Source of the DNA: Candidatus Eiseniibacteriota bacterium | GTDB taxonomy: Bacteria; Eisenbacteria; RBG-16-71-46 | NCBI GenBank assembly: GCA_031364845.1 | Contig: JANLWX010000216.1 | Coordinates: forward strand, 1-33,602 | DNA length: 33,602 bases | Direction: 5' to 3' | In this document: positions 44-20,746 of the stretch, piece by piece | Layout: each line of letters opens with the position of its first letter | How positions within the stretch are numbered: position 1 is the first letter of the stretch | Program-made: the position numbers and the translations under genes | The notes under the pieces: generated by a model | The model's input: the letters and a program-made list of their open reading frames with translations, nothing else | The model's database searches: none | What the model was told of the DNA's origin: nothing

Positions 44-72
44 ACCTTACGAAGCGCCCTGCGGAGCGTCAA
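44..72 (-). promoter_or_regulatory. sigma70-like promoter TTGACG-N17-TAAGGT
   Basis: -35 at 72-67 and -10 at 49-44, upstream of an RBS and the GTG at 14. Confidence 0.55.
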
Positions 73-1090
73 GCTCCATCAGGTCCGCTTCGAGATCCTC
101 AGGAGCCACATCGAGGCCGTAGCGCCTGAGCTTCTTGAGCAGGCCCTGCCGCGAGAGCCCGAGCGTGCGCGCCGCGCGCGATTTGTTGCCGCGCGCGCGG
201 TCCAGCGCTTCGCGGAGCCGCCGTTCCTCGAGCGCACGCGTTTCGGCGTGCAGTCCGTGTGCTGCGCGCGCGTCGGCCGCGGTGACCCAGCGGTGCGGCC
301 AGTGCTCGAGCCCGACCTGCTCGCGCGCGCCCGCGACGCGCACGGCGTAGGCGCAGCCGTTCGCCAGCTCGCGCACGTTGCCCGGCCATGCGTGCCGCAG
401 CAGGCGCTCGCCCAGCTCGGGTGCCAACTGCGGAGGCTCGATCCGCAGCGTCGCCGCGGCGCGCGCCAGGAACGCACGCGCGAGCAGCACGACGTCGGTG
501 CCGCGTTCGCGCAGCGGAGGCAGCTCGATGCGCACCGCGTTCAGTCGGTAGTAGAGGTCCGCGCGGAACTCCCCGCGCCCGATGTGGTCCTCGAGCCGCC
601 GGTGGGTCGCCGAAACGATCCGCACGTCGATCTTCCGCACGCGGACATCGCCGACCCGGCGCGCCTCGCCCTCCTGCAGCACGCGCAGCAGCTTCATCTG
701 GAGCAAGGCACTCGCGTCGCCAATCTCGTCCAGGAACAACGTGCCGTGATCGGCGGACTCGAACAGCCCGCCGCGATCGGCGACCGCGCCCGTGAACGAT
801 CCCTTCGCATGCCCGAACAGTTCGCTCTCGATCAGACTGTCCGGGGTGGCGCCACAGTTATGGGCGACGAACGCGAGCCGCCGCCTCAGGCTCAGCTCGT
901 GGATCGCCTTCGCCACGAGTTCCTTGCCGGTTCCGGTTTCACCGAGGATCAAAACCGGCAGATCGCTCTCGGCGATGCGCGGCAGCGCGGCGCGCACTTC
1001 ACGCCACGGCGGCGACTCGCCGATCAGATCCGGTGCTCCGTACTCGTGCGTCTCGCGGGCGCGATCGAACATCAGGGTTCCGCTCTCCAT
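47..1090 (-). CDS. sigma54-dependent transcriptional activator (AAA+ and Fis-type HTH, no N-terminal sensor)
   Basis: Walker A GETGTGKE, ESELFGH-x-KGSFTGA, Walker B LFLDEIGD, FRADLYYRL, WPGNVREL, C-terminal HTH GNKSRAARTLGLSR; GGAGG RBS before ATG 1090. Confidence 0.92.
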   Translation of the reverse strand: MESGTLMFDRARETHEYGAPDLIGESPPWREVRAALPRIAESDLPVLILGETGTGKELVAKAIHELSLRRRLAFVAHNCGATPDSLIESELFGHAKGSFTGAVADRGGLFESADHGTLFLDEIGDASALLQMKLLRVLQEGEARRVGDVRVRKIDVRIVSATHRRLEDHIGRGEFRADLYYRLNAVRIELPPLRERGTDVVLLARAFLARAAATLRIEPPQLAPELGERLLRHAWPGNVRELANGCAYAVRVAGAREQVGLEHWPHRWVTAADARAAHGLHAETRALEERRLREALDRARGNKSRAARTLGLSRQGLLKKLRRYGLDVAPEDLEADLMELDAPQGAS

Positions 1091-1137
1091 CCCGACCTCC
1101 CTCATCCCTGCCACCCCGGGGAACCACGGACCCATCA

Positions 1138-2163
1138 CTACATCGTCCACTCCACACCACGCTCGCCGCCGGCGAGCACGCCGATCTCGTGCACGGTTTC
1201 TCCCGCGCCCTGCCATTCGCGCATCAGCGCGGCCGAATCTTCGGCGGCGCACACCACGACCATTCCGATCCCCATGTTGAAGCTCGCGCGCGCATCGTCG
1301 ATCGGAATCTCGCCGGCTGCCATCAGCCACCGCATGAGCGGTGGGACCTCCCACGACGAAGCACGCACGCGCGCACGCACACCGTCCGGCAGCACGCGTT
1401 CGAGGTTGCCGGCGATCCCGCCGCCGGTCACATGCGCGAGCGCGCGCAGCTTTCCCGCTGCCAGCGCCGGGAGCAGTGCCGCGCCGTACCACCGATGCGG
1501 CGCGAGCAGCGCATCGGCGAGCGAGACCGCGGAACCGGGCACCGCATCGGACAGCCGCAGGCCCGAGCGCGCGACCACGCGGCGCGCGAGCGAGAACCCG
1601 TTGGTGTGGAGTCCCGCGGCACCGAGACCCAGCAGCACGTCGCCCGAGCGCGCACCTTGGCCGTCGATCACGGCGTCCGGATCGACGCTGCCGATCATGC
1701 AGCCCGCGACATCGACCACGCCGGGGAGATAGGTGTCGGGCATCTCCGCCGTTTCCCCGCCGAGCAGCACGGCACCCACTTCACGGCATGCGCGCGCGAT
1801 CCCGCGCACGACCTCGGACACCACCTCGGTATCGAGCCGCGATTGCGCGACGTAGTCGAGGAACGCAAGCGGACGGGCGCCGTGGACCAGCAGATCGTTG
1901 GCGCCGTGATAGACGAGATCAGCGGCGGCGTCCGCGACACGGCCCGCTTCGAGCGCCACGTGCAGCTTGGTGCCGACGCCGTCCATGGTGGCCGCGACCA
2001 GACGCGGCGTACCCGCGCGCGACGCGGGAAACTCCATCACGCCCGCGAAGCCGTTCGGGATCGGCCGCACCGCCCTGGACCACGTCGAACGGACCGCTTC
2101 GCCGATGCCCTGCTTCAAGGCGTCGGACCGCGCGAGATCGACGCCGGCGTCGCGATAGCGCAT
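1138..2163 (-). CDS. purM: phosphoribosylformylglycinamidine cyclo-ligase
   Basis: YRDAGVD start, DGVGTK, PLAFLDY, GGETAEMP, GLHTNGFSL, HVTGGG, FNMGIGM; TGATG overlap with the upstream stop. Confidence 0.95.
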   Translation of the reverse strand: MRYRDAGVDLARSDALKQGIGEAVRSTWSRAVRPIPNGFAGVMEFPASRAGTPRLVAATMDGVGTKLHVALEAGRVADAAADLVYHGANDLLVHGARPLAFLDYVAQSRLDTEVVSEVVRGIARACREVGAVLLGGETAEMPDTYLPGVVDVAGCMIGSVDPDAVIDGQGARSGDVLLGLGAAGLHTNGFSLARRVVARSGLRLSDAVPGSAVSLADALLAPHRWYGAALLPALAAGKLRALAHVTGGGIAGNLERVLPDGVRARVRASSWEVPPLMRWLMAAGEIPIDDARASFNMGIGMVVVCAAEDSAALMREWQGAGETVHEIGVLAGGERGVEWTM

Positions 2164-3485
2164 CAGCGGTGGAGCCGCAGCGTACGGACGCGCAGATTGA
2201 GCAGGTCCTCGCTGCTCGGACTCGGAATCAGGGGAAAGCGCGCGGTTTCGTGGAGGCCCATTAGGCACGCCACGACACCGGCGTCGAACTGCGAACCGGA
2301 CCCGCGGCGCAATTCCGCGAGTGCGGCTTCGAGCGTCAGGGCGCGCCGGTAGGGCCGGTCCGACGTCATCGCGTCGAACGCGTCCGACACGTTCAAGATC
2401 CGCGCACCGAGCGGAACGTCGGCCGAGCGCAGTCCGAACGGATAACCTTGGCCGTCGGGCCGCTCGTGGTGCGAACGCACGATCTCCGAGGCGCGCCGCA
2501 GTGCCCTCACCTTCATCACGATTTCGGCACCCGCGGCGGGATGCGCGCGCAGCGTGCGCTGCTCCTCGTGCGACAGCGATCCCGGCTTCTGGAGGATGTA
2601 CTGGTGCTGCGGGCCGATCTTGCCCAGGTCGTGCACCAGTGCCGCGTACTCGATCTCCTCGACTTCGCGTTCGCGCAGTTTCATTCCCCGCGCAAGGCGC
2701 ACGGCGTACTCGGCGACGCGCACCGAGTGATGGCGCGTATAGGGATCGACCTCTTCCAGCACTTCGGTCAGCGCGCGCACGAAGTCTTTGAGGTCCGAGC
2801 GGATCTCGACGTAGAGCCGGAACGAATGGCGCGCGACCCAGAACGGCACCGCGAACAGCACGAGGCCCCACGGCCCGGCGCTGAAATAAGTCACCGTCGC
2901 GAGCACGCCGAGCGCGATGAACGACATGTGGTGGAAGATGCCGTGCTGGAAATTGCGCTCCCACACGCGCCACGGATCGGGCCCGTGGACGATGCCGACG
3001 ATGATGGAGGCGAGCGCGGAATTGACGAGGAAGTACGTGAGGCCCGCGACCACCAGCGGCACGATCTGCCCGGTGAACGAAAAGTTCGAGGGATCACCCC
3101 CCGCGAGGCGGTAGGCGTGGCCGGCGGCGAGGTCGGTGATCGCGACGATCGCCATGTTGTGGAACACGCGCACCGGCGGCTTGCGCAGCACCAGACCCTG
3201 CCCGATGCACAGGCTCAGCATGTCGAGCACCGCGGTCCACCACGGTCCGAGCACGATCAGGCACGGAAGGTCGACCACCGCACTGGCGGTCGCGTAGCCG
3301 CCGCCCGGAAGATCGACGGGCGTCAGCTCGTTCATGAGCATGAGCAGCAACGCGAGGATCAGCGCCGGCGCGTAAGGCAGCGGACCCGGCGACGTCATGA
3401 TCAACAACGCCGCCGCGAGAGAGATCGCGGCCGCGTAGTAGAGATGAAAGAGCCAGGGGCGGCGCTGAGACGGAGACTCAGTCAT
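2163..3485 (-). CDS. membrane-bound HD-GYP cyclic-dinucleotide phosphodiesterase with multi-TM N-terminal sensor (MASE-like)
   Basis: About 6-7 hydrophobic segments in the first ~225 aa, then HHSVRVA, HDLGKIG, HP, HHERPDGQGYP, DAFDAMTSDRPYR. Confidence 0.92.
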   Translation of the reverse strand: MTESPSQRRPWLFHLYYAAAISLAAALLIMTSPGPLPYAPALILALLLMLMNELTPVDLPGGGYATASAVVDLPCLIVLGPWWTAVLDMLSLCIGQGLVLRKPPVRVFHNMAIVAITDLAAGHAYRLAGGDPSNFSFTGQIVPLVVAGLTYFLVNSALASIIVGIVHGPDPWRVWERNFQHGIFHHMSFIALGVLATVTYFSAGPWGLVLFAVPFWVARHSFRLYVEIRSDLKDFVRALTEVLEEVDPYTRHHSVRVAEYAVRLARGMKLREREVEEIEYAALVHDLGKIGPQHQYILQKPGSLSHEEQRTLRAHPAAGAEIVMKVRALRRASEIVRSHHERPDGQGYPFGLRSADVPLGARILNVSDAFDAMTSDRPYRRALTLEAALAELRRGSGSQFDAGVVACLMGLHETARFPLIPSPSSEDLLNLRVRTLRLHR

Positions 3486-3529
3486 TCGGACACCATGAAG
3501 CGGGGCGGGTGAAGCTCGGGAAGAACCAG

Positions 3530-3756
3530 GAGGCCGACGTCTGATGGGAGGTGTACTACGTGTTCGTTACTGGAGCAACAACTGGCTTACCAGCCAGCCT
3601 TTCCAAAGAACTGGACCAGCACAACAATGAGTTCCACGAAACGCCTCCTGAGAAGTTTGAGGGAGGTGACGGTTGAACTGCGCGTCAGGTGGGACCGCTT
3701 CGCTGGTTCGCTTCGGAATTATCGCTTCGCTTCCTCCCTAGGAAGACGTCGGCCTC
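3530..3756 (-). repeat. long-range inverted repeat enclosing the peptide ORF
   Basis: GAGGCCGACGTCT (3530-3542) is the exact reverse complement of 3744-3756; pairing continues after an internal loop with GGGAGG 3546-3551 / CCTCCC 3733-3738. Confidence 0.75.
3587..3637 (-). CDS. small hydrophobic peptide, 16 aa, MELIVVLVQFFGKAGW (not in ORF track)
   Basis: AGGAGG at 3649-3644, 6-nt spacer, GTG start at 3637, TAA at 3589-3587; co-directional with both neighbours. Confidence 0.7.
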   Translation of the reverse strand: MELIVVLVQFFGKAGW

Positions 3757-4643
3757 AACACATATTCGGTGGGCTCACGCATCGGCAGCCCGCCGACAAT
3801 TCGATTCAAAGCAGAGAGCGTGGCGAGTACGACCGCCTCCTGGACATCCTCACCCACCGGGCAGCATCCCGCCAGACTTTTTTGCGTGCGGTGCGCCAGC
3901 AACTCGAGCGCCACCACCACGACATCGCCGCGCCCGGCACGCGTCACTTCGACGGCATCGAGGCTCAGCGCGAGTTGCTCGTCCAGGAATTCCTGCACCG
4001 TCGCGAGCGTCGCCTGAGCGATCAGCCGCAGCGCGCCGTCACGGGTGCCATAGCCTTCGGCGCTTGCGCTGCGCGGCATCCCCATCCAGTGCAATTCGAC
4101 TTCGGCGCGCGCGCGGCGGCCCGAAACGCGAAGATTCACGGAGCTGAAGCGGATGCGATCCGCGGCGTTCCCTGCGTCTTCGGACACGTGAGCTTCCCTC
4201 CCCGGCGAAATCGGCGCGGGCGGCGGAGGCGGCGTCACGGGCGGGTTCGCGGGAGCGTTACGCACCGGCCCGGGACTATTCGGCACGCCGGGATTGGAGC
4301 CCGTCGGCAGGTCGGGGACCTGCGAACGTTCATGGCCGCCTGCGGATCCGTTGGCGACGCGAGTGTCCGTGTGTGCAACGGCCTCGGGATCCTCGACCGC
4401 GGCTGCAAGATCACGCGTGAATGCCACGGAGACCACGCGATGGTCGATCGAACGGTCGAAGAAAGTCTGCAGTACGGTCTGGACGTCACGCACGATCTGT
4501 TTCGCCGTGCGGTGGGATCCGCTCGTGACGTGGATCTCGCGAATCTCGTCGTCCTCGGTGCGGATCCGCGCGCCATCCACACCGCGCAACTGACGGAGTT
4601 TCGCCTCGGCCAGTGCCGTCCAATTCTGGGGTGTCGTATCCAT
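3738..4643 (-). CDS. uncharacterised two-domain protein: N-terminal alpha/beta domain, Pro-rich linker, C-terminal domain resembling the LeuA allosteric/dimerisation fold
   Basis: IREIHV...RTAKQIVRDVQ...IDHRVVSVA, then PPVTPPPPPAP linker, then AEVEL...ASAEG and LAGCC...DVQEAVVLATLSALNR; GGAGG upstream of ATG 4643 (ATG 4694 is an alternative start); fold call is by resemblance only. Confidence 0.75.
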   Translation of the reverse strand: MDTTPQNWTALAEAKLRQLRGVDGARIRTEDDEIREIHVTSGSHRTAKQIVRDVQTVLQTFFDRSIDHRVVSVAFTRDLAAAVEDPEAVAHTDTRVANGSAGGHERSQVPDLPTGSNPGVPNSPGPVRNAPANPPVTPPPPPAPISPGREAHVSEDAGNAADRIRFSSVNLRVSGRRARAEVELHWMGMPRSASAEGYGTRDGALRLIAQATLATVQEFLDEQLALSLDAVEVTRAGRGDVVVVALELLAHRTQKSLAGCCPVGEDVQEAVVLATLSALNRIVGGLPMREPTEYVLRPTSS

Positions 4644-7392: not shown

Positions 7393-7801
7393 GATCCACG
7401 CTCCGGGCATCGCCCCACAGGCGGTCCAGCATGTAGTACTCGCGCGTCTGCTCGTGGAACACGTGCACGACGATCTCGACATAGTCCAGCAGCACCCAGC
7501 GCCGTCCTTCGAGACCTTCGACGTGCCACGGGCGCGCGCCGCGCTCGCGCAACCGGTCCTCGACCGATTCCGCGATCGCCTTCACCTGCACTTCGCTCGA
7601 GCCGGAACAGATGAAGAAGTAATCGCACAGTCCGTTGTTCAATCCGCGCAGGTCGAGCGCCACCGGGTCGCGCGCCTTCTTCGCGATCGCGGCTTCGCCC
7701 GCGGCCTTCAACAGGTCGAGAGCGGACATCCGCGCGGCGGCTTTGGATCGGGGCATCGTGCGCGGATCGTCGGGACGGGGTTCGGGCGCGTGCGCGGTCA
7801 A
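7370..7801 (-). CDS. rsfS: ribosome silencing factor (Iojap family)
   Basis: KKARDPVALDL, DYFFICSGSS, QVKAIA, WVLLDY, VVHVF, REYYMLDRLWGDA; exact start uncertain. Confidence 0.92.
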   Translation of the reverse strand: MTAHAPEPRPDDPRTMPRSKAAARMSALDLLKAAGEAAIAKKARDPVALDLRGLNNGLCDYFFICSGSSEVQVKAIAESVEDRLRERGARPWHVEGLEGRRWVLLDYVEIVVHVFHEQTREYYMLDRLWGDARSVDLGLDATD

Positions 7802-8802
7802 CGGGTGCGACGCACGGCGTAGTCGATCGCGCGGTCGAGAGCGCGCCGGGTTTCACGAACGTCCGCGCCCGATCCGTTCCCCGACAACTCGCCGTTGGCG
7901 AACGTCCGGGCATGATCGGCGAGTTCGAGCGCGCGATTCTGCGCATACTCGAATCCGCCGGCACGCTCCATGATCTGTTTGAGTGCGGTCCACTGCCCGG
8001 GGGTCCAGCGCTTGCGTCCTGCCAGCGCCTTCAACTTCTTCCGGTCGGCGTCGGTCGCATTGCGCAGCGCGGCGATCAGCGGCAGCGTGATCTTGCCTTC
8101 GGCGAGATCGCTGCCGACCGGCTTGCCGGTCACTTCCGGATCGCCGTGATAGTCGAGCAGGTCATCGACGATCTGGAACGCGATGCCGATCGCCTCACCG
8201 AATCGACGGAACTGTTCGCGCGCTTTACGGTCACGGCCGCCGCCGTTCACCCCCGCGCCGATCTCGGCCGCAGCACCAATCAGCGAGCCGGTCTTCGAAC
8301 GCACCAGCTCTTCGTACTGCGCTTCGGTCACATTAAGATCGTTCGCGTGCTGGAACTCGAGCGCCTCGCCGCACGACATCTCGGCCACCACGCGCGCCAT
8401 CACTTCCATGGCGAGGCCGAGCTTGTGACGGACGAGCATCGCCATCGACTGGGCATAGAGGTAGTCACCCATGATGATCGCCATCTCGTCGGTCCACAGT
8501 CCGTTGACCGTGGGCCGTCCGCGGCGCAACGCGCTGCCGTCCACCGAGTCGTCGTGGATGAGTGCCGCCGCGTGGACCATCTCGATCACGGTCGCGCAGC
8601 GGATCGCGTCCTCGCCGAGGTGCCCGCGCAGTTTCGCGACCAGCAGCAGCAGCGTCGGGCGGTATTTCTTGCCGCGCGTCGCGAGCACGTGGCCCCCGAC
8701 CTGATTCATGATCGGAATCGGGGTGCGGAAGGATTCGCGCAATAGCGTCTGAACCTGCGCGAGCTCGCGCCGCACGGGTTTCTGGACTGCGATCATCGAC
8801 AT
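7798..8802 (-). CDS. polyprenyl diphosphate synthase
   Basis: GKKYRP, first Asp-rich motif LIHDDSVD...RRG, GDYL, KTG, second motif FQIVDDLLD, GKPVGSDL-EGKITLP. Confidence 0.93.
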   Translation of the reverse strand: MSMIAVQKPVRRELAQVQTLLRESFRTPIPIMNQVGGHVLATRGKKYRPTLLLLVAKLRGHLGEDAIRCATVIEMVHAAALIHDDSVDGSALRRGRPTVNGLWTDEMAIIMGDYLYAQSMAMLVRHKLGLAMEVMARVVAEMSCGEALEFQHANDLNVTEAQYEELVRSKTGSLIGAAAEIGAGVNGGGRDRKAREQFRRFGEAIGIAFQIVDDLLDYHGDPEVTGKPVGSDLAEGKITLPLIAALRNATDADRKKLKALAGRKRWTPGQWTALKQIMERAGGFEYAQNRALELADHARTFANGELSGNGSGADVRETRRALDRAIDYAVRRTR

Positions 8803-12206: not shown

Positions 12207-12776
12207 CTATCCCGGCGGCAGTGCGGCGCGCTCCGCGGCCCGGATCCGGCGCCGCTCCCACTCCCGGTGCACCCACCACGCGCCGGCGATTCCGATCAGC
12301 GCCCCGACCACGGCATCGGAGGTGAAGTGCCGGTTGAGGTAAATTCGGGAAGCCGCGATCAGGGTGGCCAATGCCCACAGCGCGGGGGCCGCCCGCCGCC
12401 AGTGGCGCGCGAGCACCGCCGCGATCGCGAAGGCATTGGCGGCGTGACTCGAAGGGAACGACGCATTCGAGCGTTTGTGCTCGCCGTCGGGGCGCGCGCG
12501 GTAGGTCAGACGCTTGAGACCTTCGACCGCGAGGTTGACCGGGATCAGCGTCACGACCGCGAGCCGGGCGGTCGCGACCCCGGGCGTGCCTTCGATCAGG
12601 CACATCGCGAGCAGCATGCCGGCCACCACGCCCCCCTTTCCGATGTCGGAAAGAAAGCGGGCGGGCTTCTGCAACTCGGGACGCCGCGCATCCTGCACCG
12701 CGCGCTGGGCGGCAAGGTCCAACTGCTCGAGCGGGCCCAGGAATGCGAGCACCAGCAGCAGCACGCGGATCGTCAT
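12207..12776 (-). CDS. PAP2-family phosphatase
   Basis: LKRLTYRARP, SFPSSH, SRIYLNRHFTSD motifs; ATGA overlap with batD. Confidence 0.9.
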   Translation of the reverse strand: MTIRVLLLVLAFLGPLEQLDLAAQRAVQDARRPELQKPARFLSDIGKGGVVAGMLLAMCLIEGTPGVATARLAVVTLIPVNLAVEGLKRLTYRARPDGEHKRSNASFPSSHAANAFAIAAVLARHWRRAAPALWALATLIAASRIYLNRHFTSDAVVGALIGIAGAWWVHREWERRRIRAAERAALPPG

Positions 12777-15136
12777 TCGAGTGACTCCACCCCGCGCACC
12801 ACGTCTGCCGGCAGCCAGCCGGACACGCCGCGGCCGACCCACACGATCTGGCGGCCGCCATCCTTGCCCCGCAGGCGGACCACGCGCCCCGGCTCGAGGT
12901 CGATGTCGCTGCCGCCGAGCCGCGTCTCGCGCATCACCACCGCCTCGCCGCTACGGGCGATGGCGAGCGACTGGACCGGCACCACGCACGCGCACGCCGC
13001 GAGCAAGACGGCGCACACGAGACTCGCCAGCCTCCGCGGCCACACGATGCCCGCGGCGAGTCCGAACATGGCGCCGAGCACTCCCCACTCGAGCCGCGTC
13101 ATCGGAATCGAGCGCAGCGGGCTGCCGCTCAGGCCGCCCGCTTCGCGCACGCGGGCCTTCGTCCAGCCGAGCGCGCGGTCGCGTCCGTCTTCGCGCTCGC
13201 CCCGCAGCACCCACAGTGCGGCGGGTGCGACGTCGTCGAATTCCAGCCGGCTCCACGCGAGCCGCGCTGCGAGGCCGGGCGCGCGCGCGCCGTCCTTCCA
13301 CAACGCGCGCCATCCGCGCTCCGCCGCGGCGATGTCGCCGGTGCGCGCGGCGCTCTCGGCGGCGGCGGCCCGCGTGCGACCTGCGTCCGGACCCGCATGC
13401 GGCGCGCCCCACCACGCACACGCTGCCGCCAGTGCCACGGCGGCGATGGCAGCGGCGGGCAACATCCAGCCCGGCCGCGCTCCGGCAACCGCGCCGCGCA
13501 GCGAATCGATCACGCCCGCGCGCACCGCTTCGGGATTGGCGTGGGCGCCTCCGTAGCGGACGGCGGTGATCTCCGAGCGCCACGCCGACACATCGACCCG
13601 GCGTGCTTCGAGCCAGACGCGGGCGCGTTCCGCTTCGGTCCACAGTGCGTCCCCGGCGGCACGACGCACGGCATCGATCAGTCGATCGCGCTCGGCGGCT
13701 TCAGCGCCCGCGCCCGATGGACGGCGCGCGATGCGCGCAAGCACAACCGCAAGACCGAGCAGCGCGCCCGCGCAAGCAATCCACCACGGCTGCGCCGGGC
13801 GCGCGAACGGATCGAGCGGCGCGCGGTTGAACGCCTGCGGAAACTGCGACGTGTGGCCGGCGGGCGACGACGCCGCGGGCCCGACTTCGAGCGTGAGCGG
13901 GGCGAGCGCCGAGGTGCGGTAGGCATGTGCCGCCGGATCGAACCAGCTGAAGGCCGGCGGATCGAGCGCGAGCTGGCCCAGCGAACGCGGCAGCACCGTC
14001 CAGCGAAACGCGCGGCGACCGGTGTTGACGGTGCCGCTCGCAGCGAAGCTGTCTTCGACCGTGCCTGCGAACACTTCGAATCCCTCGGGACGAAATTCCG
14101 GCGTGCGCAGCAGCGGCAGGTTGCCCGAGCCGCGCACATCGAGTCGCACCGTCAGCGGCTGATCCTGCGAGGTTCGCCTTCGGTCCACGCTCCATTGCAG
14201 GCTATAGGTTCCCACGGCTCCTCCGAAACCCGCGGGCGCACCTTCGGGCAGCGGACGCACGCGCACGCGCACCGGATTGCTGCGGATCTCCATCTGCCGC
14301 CGCGCGCCGCCACGGAACCATCCGAATGGGTCGAAGGCCTGTCCCCCAGTCTCCACCACCAGGATCGCCTCGGCGGAACCAACGGTCTGAACCCCCGACA
14401 CCAGCGGATAGAGCCGGGTGCGCGTCTCGGTCACCAGCACCCGCGAACCGCTCTGCGATCCGTAGTACGACTCGGGCTCGCTCGGACTCTCGCCCCAGAA
14501 ACCCGGGGTCGGTGGCGGCGAGTAGCGCGGGTCCTCCGCGAGGGGCTGGCGCTGGACCAGCCGCACACGCATCAACACCGGCTCGCCCACGTAGGGCTCG
14601 CGCGGCGTGACATCGACGATCAGACTCGCGGGTGCGGGGCCGGCGTTCGCGTCGTCGGCGAGACGCGGCGCGCCACCACTGCCGCCGGGCCCGCCCGCCC
14701 CACCGGCATCGGCGCGCAGTGTCAGCGGCGGATGCGTGAACACGTCGTTGCCGACTTTCACGCGAATCGGACCCACAGAGAAGTTGCCCGCCCGTCGCGG
14801 CGCGATCTCGTAGCGAAATGTGACTTCGGAAGAACTGCGTCCGTTGATCCACGAGAAACTCTGCGAGCGTCCGCTTGCGGCAATGTCGAGGTCGGCCGGA
14901 ATCTCGAACTCCGGCGACGACACGGATCCCGAGGCGCCGCGCACCGTCACCAGCAGCGACGTGGTGCTTCCGAGCGCCACCGCGCGCTGAGCGAGTTCCG
15001 CGACGATCTCGACGGCGGCGAACGCATTGCCCGCCGAGAGCATCAGCGCGAGCAGCGTAGTCCCTGCGAGCGCCGCGCGCGTTCCGGCGCACGCGCTTCG
15101 ACATCGCTCGGGCGCCGGGCGCCGGCTACCAGTCAC
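12773..15136 (-). CDS. batD: BatD-family protein with C-terminal BatE-like (TPR/SH3-like) extension
   Basis: Signal peptide, SQSFSWING, PYVGEPV, VRVRPLP...FGGAVG, VRGSGNL, FSWFDP...YRT, TM helices, terminal GWLP. Confidence 0.75.
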   Translation of the reverse strand: MTGSRRPAPERCRSACAGTRAALAGTTLLALMLSAGNAFAAVEIVAELAQRAVALGSTTSLLVTVRGASGSVSSPEFEIPADLDIAASGRSQSFSWINGRSSSEVTFRYEIAPRRAGNFSVGPIRVKVGNDVFTHPPLTLRADAGGAGGPGGSGGAPRLADDANAGPAPASLIVDVTPREPYVGEPVLMRVRLVQRQPLAEDPRYSPPPTPGFWGESPSEPESYYGSQSGSRVLVTETRTRLYPLVSGVQTVGSAEAILVVETGGQAFDPFGWFRGGARRQMEIRSNPVRVRVRPLPEGAPAGFGGAVGTYSLQWSVDRRRTSQDQPLTVRLDVRGSGNLPLLRTPEFRPEGFEVFAGTVEDSFAASGTVNTGRRAFRWTVLPRSLGQLALDPPAFSWFDPAAHAYRTSALAPLTLEVGPAASSPAGHTSQFPQAFNRAPLDPFARPAQPWWIACAGALLGLAVVLARIARRPSGAGAEAAERDRLIDAVRRAAGDALWTEAERARVWLEARRVDVSAWRSEITAVRYGGAHANPEAVRAGVIDSLRGAVAGARPGWMLPAAAIAAVALAAACAWWGAPHAGPDAGRTRAAAAESAARTGDIAAAERGWRALWKDGARAPGLAARLAWSRLEFDDVAPAALWVLRGEREDGRDRALGWTKARVREAGGLSGSPLRSIPMTRLEWGVLGAMFGLAAGIVWPRRLASLVCAVLLAACACVVPVQSLAIARSGEAVVMRETRLGGSDIDLEPGRVVRLRGKDGGRQIVWVGRGVSGWLPADVVRGVESLE

Positions 15137-16850
15137 GGCCGCGCCGTTCCTTCATCACGCGCACCTTGCGCTTGTTCTGCTGTTCCATACGCTGGAGTTC
15201 CTCGAGCGCATTCAGAATCTGATCGGCCTGCGCGCGTTCCATGCCCTGCTGGGGTCGCGGTTGCGGCTGCTCCCCTTCCTGCGGCTGCGGCGCGGCATTG
15301 GGATTGGGCTGCGGATTCTGAGGCTGTGGCTGCGACGGCTGCGGCGAGGGATTCGGCTTGGGCTCGGGCTGCTTCGGCTGCTGCTCGGGATTCTTCTGCT
15401 GTTCTTCCTGGCGGCGCTGCAGCACGACTTCGTAGTTGAACCGCGCGTCGGCATCCTTGGGATCGCGCTCGAGCGCGCGGCGCAACGCCTTCAACGCCGG
15501 ATCGTACTGATTCGCTTCGCCGAGCAGCGTGCCCTGGTTGTAACCAGCAACGCGTCCATTGCGATCATCGCGCGCCGCGAGGTCGTCGAGCTCTTGAATG
15601 CCTTCGGGTCCATGGCCCGCGAGCGCGCGGGCGGTGGCGCGGTTCACCTTCACCGCGGCGGCGGCCTTCGGATCCTTGAGGCGCAGCGTGTAGAGCGACT
15701 CGGCGGCCGCGTACTTTCCGGCTTTGAACGCGCGATCACCTTTCGCCCATGCGCTCTGTGCCTCGACGCGTGCGGCCGGCAGCACGAATGACAGGGCGAT
15801 CAGCGCCGCGACCGCGCGCGTTCCCGCCGCGGACGGAGGAGAGGATTCACGCGAGATGCGGCGGCGGCGGCCGAGTGCCTCGATCACGAGCAGCACGGCG
15901 GCGGCGAGTCCGAACCACATGAAGCGCGCGACCGGACGCTCGATCAGACGGTTGCCGCGCCCGGACGCCGCCACCGCGCCGAGTGAGGCGAGCAGGCGCG
16001 GCAGTTCGCCGCCGGGACGCGAGGCGGAGAAGTATCCGCCGCGGGTGCGCCGCGCGAGCTGCCGCAGCAACGCATCGTCGAGCCGGCTGCGCACCGCCGC
16101 ACCGTTTTCGTCGCGCTTGATGTCGGAGACGCGTCCGTGATCGTCCACCACGGGCACCACGTCACCGGCCGGAGTGCCGACGCCGATCGCGAACACGCGC
16201 ACGCCGCTGCGCACGGCATCTTCGACCGCGGCGGCGGCGCCCTGCTCCAGGTCTTCGCCATCGGTCCACAGCACGATCACCTGCTCGTCGCGCCTGCCGT
16301 TGGGCAGCAACCGCAATGCGGTGCGCAATCCCTTGCCGAGATCGGTGCCCGGTTCCGCGACCGCGAGGCTCGACAATCCTTCCACAGTGAGGCGCGCGGC
16401 GGCACGGTCGAGCGTCGGCGGGCACAGGCGGATCGCCTCGCCCGCGAACGCGACCACGCCGAAGCGGCTGCCGCCCAGCCGGTCGATCACGGCGAGCGCT
16501 TCGCGCCGCGCCTCGTCGAGCCGGCTCGGCGGCACGTCGCGCGCATCCATGCTCGCCGACACATCGACCACCAGCACGACATCCGACCCCGTCGATCCGC
16601 GCCGCACGACTTCGCGTCCCCACTCGGGCCGCGCCGCGCCCACGATCAGCAGTGCGGCCGCCCCGATCCGCAACAGCGCTCCCATCGCGCGCTGGCGCGG
16701 GCGCACCTGCGCCAGCAGCGCACCGTCGAGCCGCGTGCCGACCAGGCGGCCGAGTGCCGCGCGCCGGCGGCGCGCGGCGAGCCACTCGAGCAGCGCGAAC
16801 AGCGGCAGCGCCGCCAGCGCCCACAACCACCGCGGATCGCCGAAAGTCAT
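15126..16850 (-). CDS. VWA domain + TPR protein (BatB-BatC fusion)
   Basis: ARPEWG, MIDAS DVSASM, SRLDEA, GTDLG, TDGED; TPR YNQG...ALERDP-DADARFNYE; Q/P-rich linker; terminal DW. Confidence 0.85.
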   Translation of the reverse strand: MTFGDPRWLWALAALPLFALLEWLAARRRRAALGRLVGTRLDGALLAQVRPRQRAMGALLRIGAAALLIVGAARPEWGREVVRRGSTGSDVVLVVDVSASMDARDVPPSRLDEARREALAVIDRLGGSRFGVVAFAGEAIRLCPPTLDRAAARLTVEGLSSLAVAEPGTDLGKGLRTALRLLPNGRRDEQVIVLWTDGEDLEQGAAAAVEDAVRSGVRVFAIGVGTPAGDVVPVVDDHGRVSDIKRDENGAAVRSRLDDALLRQLARRTRGGYFSASRPGGELPRLLASLGAVAASGRGNRLIERPVARFMWFGLAAAVLLVIEALGRRRRISRESSPPSAAGTRAVAALIALSFVLPAARVEAQSAWAKGDRAFKAGKYAAAESLYTLRLKDPKAAAAVKVNRATARALAGHGPEGIQELDDLAARDDRNGRVAGYNQGTLLGEANQYDPALKALRRALERDPKDADARFNYEVVLQRRQEEQQKNPEQQPKQPEPKPNPSPQPSQPQPQNPQPNPNAAPQPQEGEQPQPRPQQGMERAQADQILNALEELQRMEQQNKRKVRVMKERRGRDW

Positions 16851-16878
16851 GCTCTCCTCCCGAAACCAACACGGTTCG

Positions 16879-17865
16879 TCATGGCAGCCGAAACGCCCAG
16901 GTCGTCGTGGCCAGTCCGTAGAAACCGAGCAGTGCGGCCGCCGCGATCAGCAGATAGGGACCGATGTCGTAGTACTCGCGATACTCGATCGATTTGATGG
17001 GTGCCCTCTCGAGCCGGTCTATCTCGCCGTAGATCGCCGCGAGTGCCGCGGGATCGACCGCGCGGAAGAAACGGCCGTTGGTGCGCTTGGCGATCTCGCG
17101 CAGCGAAGTTTCGTCGACGTCCATGCGCACCATCTCGGTGCGCCGGCCCAGCAGCGGATCGCCGACCGGAACCGGCACCACGCCGCCGCGGCCCGCGAGC
17201 ACGGTGTAGACCTTGACGCCGAGCGCCTTCGCGACATCGGCGGCGGTCAGTGGATCGACCGCGCCGCGGTTGCTCTGGCCATCGGTGAGCAGGATCACGA
17301 TCCGCGTCGGCGTCTTGCTCTCGCGCAGTCCCGCGACCGCGGTCGCGAGGCCCATGCCGACCGCGGTGCCATCTTCGGCGAGTCCGAAGTCGAGATTCGA
17401 AAGCAGCTCCTCGAGCGCATCATGGTCGAGCGTGAGCGGGCACTGGCTGAATGCGGTCCCGGCGAAGCCGACCAGGCCGATGCGATCGTGCGTGCGCTGG
17501 CGGACGAAGTCGAGCGCCGTGCGCTTGGCGACCTCGAGCCGGTTGTCGGGCTGGAAATCCTCGGCCGCCATGCTCGGCGAGATGTCGATCGCGAGCATGA
17601 TGTCGACACCCTGGGTTTCGACCTCGCTCTTGCGCACGCCTTCCTGCGGGCGCGCGACCGCGGCGAGGGCGAGGATCATCGCGAGCCACGGCAGCAGATC
17701 GAGTCCGCGCACCCCGAGCCCGGTGATTCCGCCGCGCACACCCGGGATTTTCGTTCGCACCCACAGCACCGCCGCGCGCCGGCGCCCCGAAGTGCGCGCC
17801 CACAGCACGAGCGCGGGCACGATCAAGAGCAGCAGCAGGAGCCACGGCTGTTCCCAGCGGGTCAT
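16879..17865 (-). CDS. batA: BatA-like VWA domain membrane protein
   Basis: ARPQ, GVDIMLAIDISPSM-AEDF-P-NRL, DRIGLVGF, PLTLDH, DGTAVGMGL, ILLTDG-SNRG; ATGA overlap. Confidence 0.9.
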   Translation of the reverse strand: MTRWEQPWLLLLLLIVPALVLWARTSGRRRAAVLWVRTKIPGVRGGITGLGVRGLDLLPWLAMILALAAVARPQEGVRKSEVETQGVDIMLAIDISPSMAAEDFQPDNRLEVAKRTALDFVRQRTHDRIGLVGFAGTAFSQCPLTLDHDALEELLSNLDFGLAEDGTAVGMGLATAVAGLRESKTPTRIVILLTDGQSNRGAVDPLTAADVAKALGVKVYTVLAGRGGVVPVPVGDPLLGRRTEMVRMDVDETSLREIAKRTNGRFFRAVDPAALAAIYGEIDRLERAPIKSIEYREYYDIGPYLLIAAAALLGFYGLATTTWAFRLP

Positions 17866-18815
17866 GCGGCCCTCCCCTGCGGCGTGTGACGGAACAATGC
17901 CTCGACAGTGTCCTCGAAGCGTGCCGACTCCTGAACCGACGATGCCGCCCGCGCGAACTTGAGCCGGTCCCACACGCGCAGCAGCATGTCGAGCTGCTGA
18001 ACTTCGTCGACGCCGAGCCGCGTGCGTCCGAGTGCGGCGACCAGTTCGGGCGTGGTGTGGCCGGGGCGCGGCACGTGCGTGGCGGCTTCCAGATAGCGGC
18101 GCAGAATCTGCGTGAGCTGGAACGCATGCGCCGAGTAGAGACCCTGCTCGGGCAGGCGCAATGCGCGCAGTGCTTCGAGTTCCGCCAGCGCGCGCGCCGC
18201 CGGATCGAGTGCCGCGGTGACCGGGACCGCAACCGGGCGGCGCCGGCGCGCGCGCAGCCAGCGGATGATCGCGATCACCGCGACCAGTCCGAGTGCGCTC
18301 AGAATCACCCAAGTCCACGGCACCCGTTCCCACCACGGAGCTGCAAGCGGTCCGCGTGCCGGCCGCAATTCGGCGTTGCTGTCGGAGGCGGCGAGCACCG
18401 TCCTGGCGAGGAGAATGACGACCGGCAGCCGGCGCTCGCCGGGCTGCGCGGGATCCTCGTAGCGCAGACCCGGAATCGAGTGCGCGCCGAGCGTGAACGC
18501 CTGCACCGGCACTTCGATCGTGAGCGTGTCCCACGCCGGTGACCCGGTGCCGCGTGACAGCTTCGGCTGCGGCGTTCCCCACGTGAGGTCCGCAATCGGC
18601 TCGGGCGGCAGCCAGCGCAGCGTCGGGCCGCTGCGGAACACGACCCGTCCCCGATAGACCGCGGCCTCGCCGATCGTGACGGTGCCGGGGCTCACGCCCG
18701 CGCGCACGCGCAGCGGCCGCGGGTCTCCCTGAGCATGGGCGACCGCCGTGGCGAGGCACAGCGCGGCAAGCGTCGCCATCAGGCGAGGCACCGCGTGACG
18801 CCCGGGCAACGTCAT
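17862..18815 (-). CDS. Bat-cluster membrane protein (signal peptide, beta domain, TM, helical C-terminus)
   Basis: Position between DUF58 and batA; VTIGE, LRRYLE, TTPEL, DRLKFAR. Confidence 0.75.
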   Translation of the reverse strand: MTLPGRHAVPRLMATLAALCLATAVAHAQGDPRPLRVRAGVSPGTVTIGEAAVYRGRVVFRSGPTLRWLPPEPIADLTWGTPQPKLSRGTGSPAWDTLTIEVPVQAFTLGAHSIPGLRYEDPAQPGERRLPVVILLARTVLAASDSNAELRPARGPLAAPWWERVPWTWVILSALGLVAVIAIIRWLRARRRRPVAVPVTAALDPAARALAELEALRALRLPEQGLYSAHAFQLTQILRRYLEAATHVPRPGHTTPELVAALGRTRLGVDEVQQLDMLLRVWDRLKFARAASSVQESARFEDTVEALFRHTPQGRAA

Positions 18816-18817
18816 CC

Positions 18818-19699
18818 TCACTTGACGCGCCTCCGTCCGCGCGCGCTGAAGTAGCGGATCAAAAGCGGCAGGTACGAACGGTCGGTGCGCACTTCGATCA
18901 CCGGACAACGCGCGAGGTTGAGCGCGCGCTCGGCGCGGGCGCGCACGTCGCGCGCAGCCTGCTGGTAACGCTCGCGCACCTTGCGGCTCGAGGTGTCGAC
19001 CAGCGTCCGCTCGCCAGTCTCGAGATCCTCGATCTCGACCCAGCCGACCGCCGGCAGCACTTCGTCGCGCGGATCGCGCAGGACGATCGCCGTCAGTTCG
19101 TGGCGGCGTCCGAGCACGCGCAGGCTGCGGCCGTCGATGTCGTCTTCGAAGTCCGAGATCCAGAACACGAGGCTTCTGCGGTGCGCGGTGCGCAGGATGA
19201 ACTGCGCCGCCTCATCGGGACGCCCGCGCGTGGTCTCGGGCGTGAACCCGATCACGTCGCGGAGCAGGCGCAGCAGATGCGTGCGGCCGCGCGCCGGGGG
19301 CACGAAATGTTCGACCTTCTCGCCGGACAGCACCAGCCCGACGCGGTCGTTGTTGCTGACGGCGGCGAATCCGAGCACCGCAACCAGCTCGGCCGCCAGA
19401 TCGCGCTTCTCGGCGCCGGCGGTGCCGAACCACATCGAGCGTGACACATCGACCACCAGCAGCACGCTCAGTTCGCGTTCCTCGACGAAGCGCTTCACGT
19501 AAGGTTCGCCGAGGCGCGCGGTGACGTTCCAGTCGATGTCGCGCACTTCGTCCCCGGGGAGGTAGGCGCGCACCTCTTCGAACTCGACGCCCCGTCCCTT
19601 GAAGACGCTCACCGACCGGCCGGCGAACAGATCCTCCACCAGGTGGCGGCTGCGGATCTCGAGCCGGCGCACCTTGCGCAGCAGTTCCGTGGTCTGCAT
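18818..19699 (-). CDS. DUF58 family protein
   Basis: FKGRGVEFEEVRAY-PGDEVRDIDWNVTAR, EEREL, DVSRSM, NDRVGL, ISDF. Confidence 0.92.
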   Translation of the reverse strand: MQTTELLRKVRRLEIRSRHLVEDLFAGRSVSVFKGRGVEFEEVRAYLPGDEVRDIDWNVTARLGEPYVKRFVEERELSVLLVVDVSRSMWFGTAGAEKRDLAAELVAVLGFAAVSNNDRVGLVLSGEKVEHFVPPARGRTHLLRLLRDVIGFTPETTRGRPDEAAQFILRTAHRRSLVFWISDFEDDIDGRSLRVLGRRHELTAIVLRDPRDEVLPAVGWVEIEDLETGERTLVDTSSRKVRERYQQAARDVRARAERALNLARCPVIEVRTDRSYLPLLIRYFSARGRRRVK

Positions 19700-20685
19700 C
19701 AGGGAACGCGCACCTGCTCCAGGATGCGCCGCGCGATCTCTTCCCCGTCGACGCCCTCCGCTTCGGCCTCGTACGAAACGTGGATGCGGTGGCGCAGCAC
19801 GTCGGGCGCGATGTTCTTCACGTCCTCGGGCAGCACGTACGCGCGCCCGGCGAGCAGTGCCAGCGCCTGCGCGCCTTTCGCGAGGAACAGCGTGGCGCGG
19901 GGGCTCGCTCCGAAGCTGAGCAGTGCCTCGATCTGAAGTCCGAACTCCGACGGCTTGCGTGTCGCCGTCACGATGTCCAACACGTACTCCTGGATCTTTT
20001 CGTCGACGTACACTCCGGCGAGTGCGGCGCGCGCTTCGAGCACTTCGTCGCGTGAAGCGCGCGGCTCGAGCGCCGGCAGTTCCGCGAGCCCGGCGCGGCG
20101 CAGGATCTCCTTCTCGTCATGGCGCTCGGGGTAGCCGACCTTCACCTTCAGCATGAAGCGATCGCTCTGCGCTTCGGGCAGCGGATATGTGCCTTCCTGC
20201 TCGACCGGATTCTGGGTCGCGAGCACGAGGAACGGCTCCTCGAGCGAGTGCGTCTCGTCGCCGAGCGTGACCTGCTTCTCCTGCATCGCTTCGAGCAAGG
20301 CCGACTGGACCTTGGCGGGAGCGCGGTTGATTTCGTCGGCCAGGACCAGGTTCGCGAACAGCGGGCCCTTCTTCGCGGAGAACGTTCCTTCGCGCGGGTT
20401 GTAGATCATGGTGCCGGTGAGATCCGCCGGCAGCAGATCGGGCGTGAACTGGATGCGGCGGAACTTGAGCGCGAGCGAGTCCGACAGGCTCTTGACCGCG
20501 AGCGTCTTCGCGAGGCCCGGCACGCCTTCGAGCAGCACGTGGCCGCCGGTCAAGAGCCCCACGAGCAATCGGTCCACCATGTGCTGCTGGCCCACCACCG
20601 CGCGGCCGACTTCGGTGCGCACACGGCCGAGGATCTCTCCCGCGCGCTCGATGCGGGCGGCGCCCTCCCGGGTTTCGACGGTCAT
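19699..20685 (-). CDS. moxR: MoxR-family AAA+ ATPase
   Basis: HVLLEGVPGLAKT, RIQFTPDLLPAD, LADEINRAPAKVQSALLEAM, ATQNP-EQEGTYPLPEAQ-DRF, GASPR; AGGAG RBS. Confidence 0.95.
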   Translation of the reverse strand: MTVETREGAARIERAGEILGRVRTEVGRAVVGQQHMVDRLLVGLLTGGHVLLEGVPGLAKTLAVKSLSDSLALKFRRIQFTPDLLPADLTGTMIYNPREGTFSAKKGPLFANLVLADEINRAPAKVQSALLEAMQEKQVTLGDETHSLEEPFLVLATQNPVEQEGTYPLPEAQSDRFMLKVKVGYPERHDEKEILRRAGLAELPALEPRASRDEVLEARAALAGVYVDEKIQEYVLDIVTATRKPSEFGLQIEALLSFGASPRATLFLAKGAQALALLAGRAYVLPEDVKNIAPDVLRHRIHVSYEAEAEGVDGEEIARRILEQVRVP

Positions 20686-20746
20686 TCCAGATCTCCTGCA
20701 GGGGTAAGAGGCCATCGAGCATCAACACGACAGCGATCGACGCGGC

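Follow-up and report, generated by a model that had tools for sequence, protein, structure and literature searches.

Peptide pheromone systems such as Phr/Rap, SHP/Rgg, ComS/ComR, AgrD/AgrC and ComX/ComP rely on a short, hydrophobic precursor that bears a motif at its C-terminus and on a linked receptor gene, and in the MgrB-PhoQ and SafA-PhoQ pairs a tiny hydrophobic protein acts on a membrane sensor, possibly within a feedback loop. The micropeptide gene analysed here is likened to the latter pairs by description and not by sequence, its product being shorter than MgrB or SafA, equipped with a tail unit that can be repeated, and having as its proposed target the sensor of a c-di-GMP phosphodiesterase. 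With the pheromones it shares a variability of the tail among close kin, as met in Desulfosporosinus-like loci, whereas the putative receptor is an S-component-fold sensor on a c-di-GMP enzyme and a conserved RNA surrounds the ORF. In contrast to the RRNPP, Agr and ComX systems, the linked gene encodes a MASE9-like HD-GYP protein, and no TPR regulator, AgrC/ComP-type receptor or processing or export gene was found among the genes scanned.

MASE9 is an orphan sensor that occurs from Thermotoga to Streptomyces, and the MASE9-HD-GYP proteins TM1467 of T. maritima and HdgA/HdgB of S. venezuelae are likewise membrane sensors fused to HD-GYP. Ligand binding within the membrane has been proposed for MASE9 in the preprint that gave the domain its name, the main text of which names no ligand in the sections covered here and does not contain the terms 'peptide' or 'small protein' (bioRxiv 10.1101/2021.11.05.467447). 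An HdgA mutant displayed no developmental phenotype, possibly for want of an activating signal, and the activating signals of MASE9-HD-GYP proteins were suggested to be missing under the conditions tested (PMC6205966). In the portions of these two papers covered, neither a small ORF nor an RNA element is mentioned. The reuse of a transporter substrate-binding fold as a membrane receptor has likewise been described for the 5TMR histidine kinases, in a paper whose main text, as far as covered, contains neither 'MASE9' nor 'HD-GYP' and no genome-encoded peptide ligand (PMC11109136). Small membrane-associated proteins connected with c-di-GMP as well as with a structured RNA are likewise described from C. 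difficile; in the covered part of that report the RNA is a known c-di-GMP riboswitch (PMC13724677), whereas the RNA presented below matches no Rfam family and the proposed partner is a sensor-phosphodiesterase. No description of the present cassette was found in the open-licence PMC and bioRxiv literature, and the micropeptide is classed here as a putative form of peptide-to-membrane-sensor signalling that belongs to no described family.

In the window, that is the whole stretch of 33,602 nucleotides that was analysed, the micropeptide gene is located in a 250-nt gap between the stop of an uncharacterised upstream gene (3738) and the start of an HD-GYP gene (3485), the cassette being embedded among the same-strand housekeeping genes argS, pfkB and purM. 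The first-pass annotation had drawn attention to a 16-aa ORF with an AGGAGG-N6-GTG arrangement without assigning a strand; this arrangement was confirmed on the minus strand, where the Shine-Dalgarno sequence AGGAGG (3649-3644; GGAGGTG in most relatives) is followed, after 6 nt, by a GTG start codon (3637-3635), the sequence MELIVVLVQFFGKAGW and a TAA stop codon (3589-3587), so that the ortholog-conserved ORF of 16 codons occupies positions 3587..3637. The low G+C content that had been reported for the ORF also holds, at 25 of 51 nt, the two flanking genes having fractions of 0.67 and 0.66 and the intergenic region one of 0.57. Taken alone, a Shine-Dalgarno sequence followed by such an ORF is modestly rare and unremarkable: AGGAGG, a start codon and an ORF of 8-40 codons were matched 101 times genome-wide (some matches being counted twice), and four of the 101 attained a mean hydropathy of at least 1. 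The micropeptide stands above chance because it is conserved in orthologs. The hairpin CTGGCT-GGTA-AGCCAG, which had been described with the stop codon beginning in its loop, is real in this genome (3582..3597, minus strand) and weakly conserved. A stop hairpin of -5 kcal/mol or lower was predicted in 28 of 65 orthologs, against 24.8±2.4 when downstream segments were exchanged between loci, 19.8±3.1 upon shuffling and 13-16 with more distant segments, and the hairpin was dismissed as a conserved element since it fails to exceed the exchange control.

Each of the 30 loci retrieved for the top-scoring HD-GYP matches (41 genomes) has a small ORF at the same place. A pool of 68 non-redundant ortholog loci was then defined by the upstream gene followed by either the HD-GYP gene or the RNA element; excluded from it were duplicates, a contig that breaks off within the ORF and loci in which the upstream gene leads straight into purM. 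The ORF is present in 67 of the 68, 65 by pattern and two (L029 and L045) by eye, and by both approaches it is absent only at L076. The orthologs start with GTG (33), ATG (30) or TTG (2) and stop with TAA (36), TAG (25) or TGA (4). The synonymous bias which had been put forward as a check on the small ORF was indeed found, with pS 0.47 versus pN 0.15 for the final five codons in 35 orthologs and pS 0.50 versus pN 0.26 over twelve codons. By these comparisons the ORF is under coding selection, synonymous change being approximately threefold more frequent than non-synonymous change, and, judged by its conservation, the micropeptide is a real gene.

The orthologs range from 8 to 50 residues and mostly terminate in G-[KR]-x-G-W. 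In family f3 a DGKxGW-type unit, and in family f12 a GGHxWW-type unit, is repeated two or three times, and because of this repetition the tail is considered to be what selection acts on. Within the micropeptide's own family the N-terminus is acidic and not basic, and the tail is almost invariant, unlike a pherotype. The shortest version, MKMGKAGW (L004:1252-1457), is found with the RNA element and the neighbouring genes intact, and another relative possesses a version of 12 residues; it is hardly conceivable that these two versions are themselves targeted to the membrane or exported. One database protein (P0117) consists of the upstream protein continuing into the micropeptide sequence, and is probably a frameshifted gene call.

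The first-pass annotation overlooked a far larger RNA structure that surrounds the ORF. On the minus strand, the 5' strand of a 12-bp stem, P1, lies inside the codons (LRPTS) with which the upstream gene ends (3745..3756) and its 3' strand lies at 3530..3541, thereby closing a loop of approximately 200 nt that contains the ORF. The stem is extended by P1b, formed by GGGAGG (3733..3738), which begins in the upstream stop codon, and CCTCCC (3546..3551), and is followed by a pyrimidine-rich tail (3520..3529) that has four T in eight positions here and is U-rich across the family. Within the loop, two AGCG(A/G)AGCG motifs (3723..3731 and 3696..3704), the first of which forms invariant columns in alignment A1, are predicted to form G-C pairs with each other around a purine-rich internal loop, and an anti-Shine-Dalgarno segment (3685..3692) is complementary to 3651-3644. 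In 23 aligned loci, 97.8% of the P1 cells are paired and five pairs have changed on both sides, a score that was reached by none of 500 shuffles, and slid controls pair at 30-45%. G-T pairs are frequent in P1, and for this reason it is interpreted as RNA rather than as a DNA repeat, a DNA inverted repeat (inversion or MITE) being disfavoured. RNAalifold recovered P1, P1b and the stem of the two near-invariant motifs, and detected no covariation among the pairs of the latter stem. A reading of the twin motif as a DNA direct-repeat operator is likewise disfavoured, as its spacing varies from 15 to 29 nt without helical phasing. Across 65 loci the anti-Shine-Dalgarno duplex amounts to -12.6 kcal/mol for cognate partners versus -11.0±0.26 kcal/mol for swapped ones, by which measure the helix predicted to cover the micropeptide Shine-Dalgarno is co-adapted. 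A search with the core motif located P1 in 57 of 65 own-phylum loci and found none in the other eight, nor in 31 of 62 other-phylum loci, many of which carry a different long stem. The 8-mer after P1 contains on average 4.0 T versus 1.05, with at least five T in 22 of the 57 loci.

The layout of P1 and U-rich tail resembles a terminator, but the loop is approximately 200 nt and a scan for a sigma70 promoter and a standard terminator found neither; a search of Rfam over 3400-3850 yielded no match at E<=1. Two RNA runs from two studies contain near-identical contigs which are confined to the element, spanning 3533-3738, 3610-3736 (twice, once with nine differences) and 3562-3639 at a depth of 3-4, the first three of them ending within the 5' strand of P1b, at 3736-3738. 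These contigs, which lack strand and true ends, give a weak hint of a discrete RNA of approximately 200 nt, and the uncovered flanks around them carry no evidential weight. No joints or loose ends indicative of a circular or spliced RNA were seen on the element in the two runs, a form that contigs cannot rule out. At four loci in which the element no longer adjoins the upstream gene (L075, L080, L185 and L188), a promoter-like segment containing TTGAC was noted by eye ahead of the element.

The gene downstream of the element (2163..3485, minus strand) is predicted to encode a c-di-GMP-degrading membrane enzyme composed of a MASE9-like membrane domain and an HD-GYP domain. The latter matches HD_5 at 125.9 bits (cutoff 27.2), and all five motifs of the HD-GYP set (HD, HHE, GYP, RPYR) are present and intact. 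The sensor part matches MASE9 (PF20972) at 15.6 bits (E 0.016), that is below the gathering cutoff of 24.3 bits, and 39 of 46 orthologs match this Pfam family at E<=0.1 (best 4.9e-10); it is termed MASE9-like. A model of the sensor domain of a relative (37% identical to that of the window, pLDDT 94) superimposes on TmRibU with Z 15.7 and an rmsd of 3.0 Å over 160 residues, and the 15 highest-ranking structural matches of the model are to S-components or BtuM (Z 15.7-9.1), with which Foldseek agrees (E 2e-3); a ligand-binding ECF S-component fold is accordingly predicted by the model. Two acidic positions are conserved in the membrane part, E53 (D/E in 43 of 46) and D72 (42 of 46), and these could serve as pairing partners of the tail K/R. 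A complex prediction for the 30-residue peptide of a relative with its own sensor domain returned a score of 0.02 and a mark of 0.32, values that are weighed neither in favour of an interaction nor in disfavour of it. The genome of the window, G000, contains two further MASE9-like genes (L101, G000:C70:38069-38596; L102, G000:C215:16125-16601), one for a likely histidine kinase and one for a stand-alone membrane protein; no peptide gene adjoins them, and their products are possible extra receptors.

The upstream gene (3738..4643, minus strand), the start of which was placed at the second ATG (4643) where the ORF finder gives 4694, encodes an uncharacterised protein with a small N-terminal alpha/beta domain and a C-terminal domain for which the model predicts a LeuA regulatory fold. 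The C-terminal domain also matches, more weakly, double-stranded-RNA-binding domains, and the N-terminal domain yields middling matches (CzcD C-terminal, BolA/KH-like; Z 6-8.4). The family comprises 2773 representatives at E<=0.001, and in alignment A7 the N-terminal domain has a Glu, a His, an Arg-Asp and a Ser that never vary and the C-terminal domain is rich in conserved Arg, which suggests metal, catalytic or RNA-binding roles.

The distribution of the three components was compared over the same 151 own-phylum genomes, employing one query for the upstream protein, a profile for the sensor and a DNA pattern of Shine-Dalgarno plus tail for the peptide. The pattern gives some false matches (a backwards control matches 9 of the 151 genomes) and overlooks true cases, namely the window and families f3, f7 and f12. 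In family f13 the LeuA-like protein, the MASE9-like sensor and the peptide pattern were found in 10, 10 and 8 of 10 genomes, respectively; in family f10 they were found in 0 (one query), 32 and 24 of 32; and in family f15 in 12, 0 and 0 of 12, where the last figure means 'not found with this pattern', because the pattern is known to overlook true cases. In all eight f10 genomes examined, pfkB is followed by the HD-GYP gene with neither element nor peptide between them, and free-standing peptide genes occur in f9, f10, f11 and f13. At 14 free-standing loci, no MASE9-like or LeuA-like gene was present in the 7-16 kb fetched, and six of the 14 hold two or three peptide copies; the window genome has a single one. 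In the single-contig genome G076 the free-standing peptide gene is 1.7 Mb away from the two sensor genes listed. The paired twin motif is absent from the free-standing loci, single 9-mers being seen at 2 of 13 ORFs. Sites conforming to the sigma54-type consensus precede 9 of the 14 free-standing loci and all eight of the f10 HD-GYP genes, against a background of 27 in 1306 windows (2%).

The element is also retained in rearranged loci: in G083 and f18 the element, parted from the upstream gene, remains beside the HD-GYP gene, the G038 copy lies ahead of a gene for a MASE9-like histidine kinase instead of the HD-GYP gene, and G066 has retained the peptide with just a MASE9-like kinase at a distance of 9 kb. 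A simple co-loss of peptide and HD-GYP gene from the locus would be too narrow an explanation, as f13 and f11 retain the peptide elsewhere. On these comparisons the micropeptide appears to track the sensor and not the neighbouring genes; since kin are not independent this co-occurrence rests on few lineage events, yet all of them agree in direction. At L218-L221 (f10), tandem peptide genes follow a histidine kinase, which has a dCache domain in three of four cases, with lon on the other side in three of four.

Distant members of the upstream family were assessed through the best 80 of 579 genome loci, which belong to Bacillota, Actinomycetota and Sumerlaeota. Ten of these were too short for scoring; the remaining 70 had 450 nt or more of downstream flank, and among them 60 carry both sensor and peptide, six neither, two the sensor only and two the peptide only. 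Their peptides consist of a basic N-terminus, a hydrophobic stretch, GG and a tail of 4-8 residues that contains an aromatic residue in 59 of 62 cases, a basic residue in 52 and Trp in 40. The AGCG(A/G)AGCG motif is met again in these loci, as is a long enclosing stem. Across 11 Desulfosporosinus-like loci, identity is 87% in the leader and 31% in the last four residues. Many Bacillota and Actinomycetota (L104, L106, L107, L109, L112 and others) have a tandem MASE9-HD-GYP pair after one peptide gene, similar to hdgA-hdgB.

We consider it somewhat more probable than its contrary that the micropeptide acts in trans, via its tail, as an input of MASE9-type membrane sensors and that its dose is set by the RNA or by a sigma54 promoter. 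This is favoured over a leader peptide or a toxin because the peptide follows the sensor and persists unlinked, often duplicated, behind sigma54-type promoters. Among the roles that the first-pass annotation had listed, those of signalling peptide and membrane micropeptide regulator are thereby supported, through the genome-wide co-occurrence with the MASE9-like sensor and the distant free-standing, often duplicated genes. The hydrophobic part would bring the peptide to the membrane, where the G-[KR]-x-G-W tail, either still tethered or clipped off, would bind the predicted S-component pocket and alter c-di-GMP breakdown by the attached HD-GYP domain in a direction that we can only infer; translation and processing of the micropeptide, its binding to the sensor and the sign of the effect are all part of this proposal. 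Control of the dose probably lies with the enclosing RNA: P1 and the U-rich tail would end or delimit the peptide mRNA of approximately 200 nt and limit read-through into the sensor gene, the anti-Shine-Dalgarno helix would gate peptide translation, and in lineages that have lost the RNA sigma54-type promoters would take over this control. With less confidence, and rather tentatively, a broader statement can be made, namely that an undescribed and widespread form of peptide signalling exists in which the micropeptide of a folded mini-mRNA of approximately 200 nt releases or presents a short aromatic/basic tail as the ligand of MASE9, an S-component receptor of transporter origin. If true, a peptide signal encoded in the genome would feed directly into c-di-GMP hydrolysis and into histidine kinases in several phyla, with species-specific tails in some genera. 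It would also mean that c-di-GMP turnover receives input from a peptide, that the S-component fold has a further, new use and that there is a new kind of structured RNA in which a micro-gene is packaged. A cognate peptide, 4-25 residues long, is synthesisable and directly testable on the enzyme, and cultured Bacillota carry the cassette.

Alternatively, and in our estimation this is unlikely though worth serious attention, the micropeptide may be a trans-acting product of the same regulon that binds another target, such as a different membrane protein or an envelope structure, or that serves as a processed RiPP-like product, and would track MASE9 since both belong to one signalling circuit. 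What precedes the free-standing copies is a GAF-sigma54 activator, a kinase or a dCache histidine kinase and not a MASE9 gene, and the tandem copies and multi-core forms suggest a high output. A leader with two to three tail units, as in f3 and f12, resembles a RiPP precursor. Against this stand the position of the peptide gene directly before a MASE9 gene in many phyla (among the best 80 of 579 loci), the element that precedes a different MASE9 protein in G038, and the absence of a clustered modifying enzyme: none was found among the ORFs flanking the free-standing copies, and a scan of 24 window ORFs (four of them without a family) revealed no exporter, protease or modifying enzyme.

A role as a cis-acting leader peptide, in which ribosome pausing on the last codons, in response to tryptophan or another ligand, would decide between termination at P1 and transcription of the HD-GYP gene, is regarded as improbable. 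It would account for the placement of the ORF within a stem-loop that resembles a terminator and is followed by a U-rich tail, for the stop codon lying 2-20 nt from the P1 3' strand in many loci, for the conservation of Trp and Trp-Trp codons in the own phylum, and for the 8-residue version that retains the tail alone. Attenuator leader peptides, however, act only in cis, whereas homologous genes with the same tail occur here free-standing and duplicated, far from MASE9-like genes and with no paired motif nearby; in addition, residues often come after the Trp, 22 of the 62 other-phylum tails have no Trp, and the stop codon in the window is 44 nt from P1. The earlier suggestion of a leader controlling the HD-GYP gene is consequently weakened by the co-occurrence and the free-standing copies, while that part of it survives by which the surrounding RNA may tune read-through.

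That the micropeptide would be a ligand of the upstream LeuA-regulatory-fold protein is very improbable: the two genes adjoin in most loci and this fold binds amino acids, but f10 keeps the peptide where the upstream family was not found with the one query, and f15 keeps the upstream protein where no peptide was found with the pattern. Least credible of all is the Ibs-like type I toxin that had also been listed at first pass, the silencing of which would be due to RNA folding or to an antisense RNA. The small size, hydrophobicity and helix-covered Shine-Dalgarno would speak for it; against it stand the class-wide vertical conservation at a housekeeping locus, the existence of very short (8-residue), hydrophilic and acidic multi-core variants with a polar tail as the conserved feature, the single copy in the genome and the lack of an Rfam match.

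Some further features of the window and its genome were noted alongside the preferred reading of a trans-acting sensor input. A gene for a sigma54-dependent activator (AAA+ and HTH) with no recognised sensor domain follows purM (47-1492, minus strand), and a sigma54-like site (3899-3913, minus strand) lies in the upstream gene approximately 276 nt before the micropeptide start; the latter is probably due to chance because it is present in only 1 of 65 orthologs. Genes for a MoxR AAA ATPase, a DUF58 protein, two VWA proteins and BatD (12773-20715, minus strand) constitute an ordinary Bat-type cluster. A polyprenyl synthetase gene is located at 7798-8802, for which a putative ComQ-like role was considered. 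Finally, a Shine-Dalgarno-led ORF of 21 codons, MQAYSPTAKERAMKMREVLLE, is found in identical form five times in genome G000 (contigs C28, C55, C80, C95 and C168) and is probably part of a repeated mobile element.
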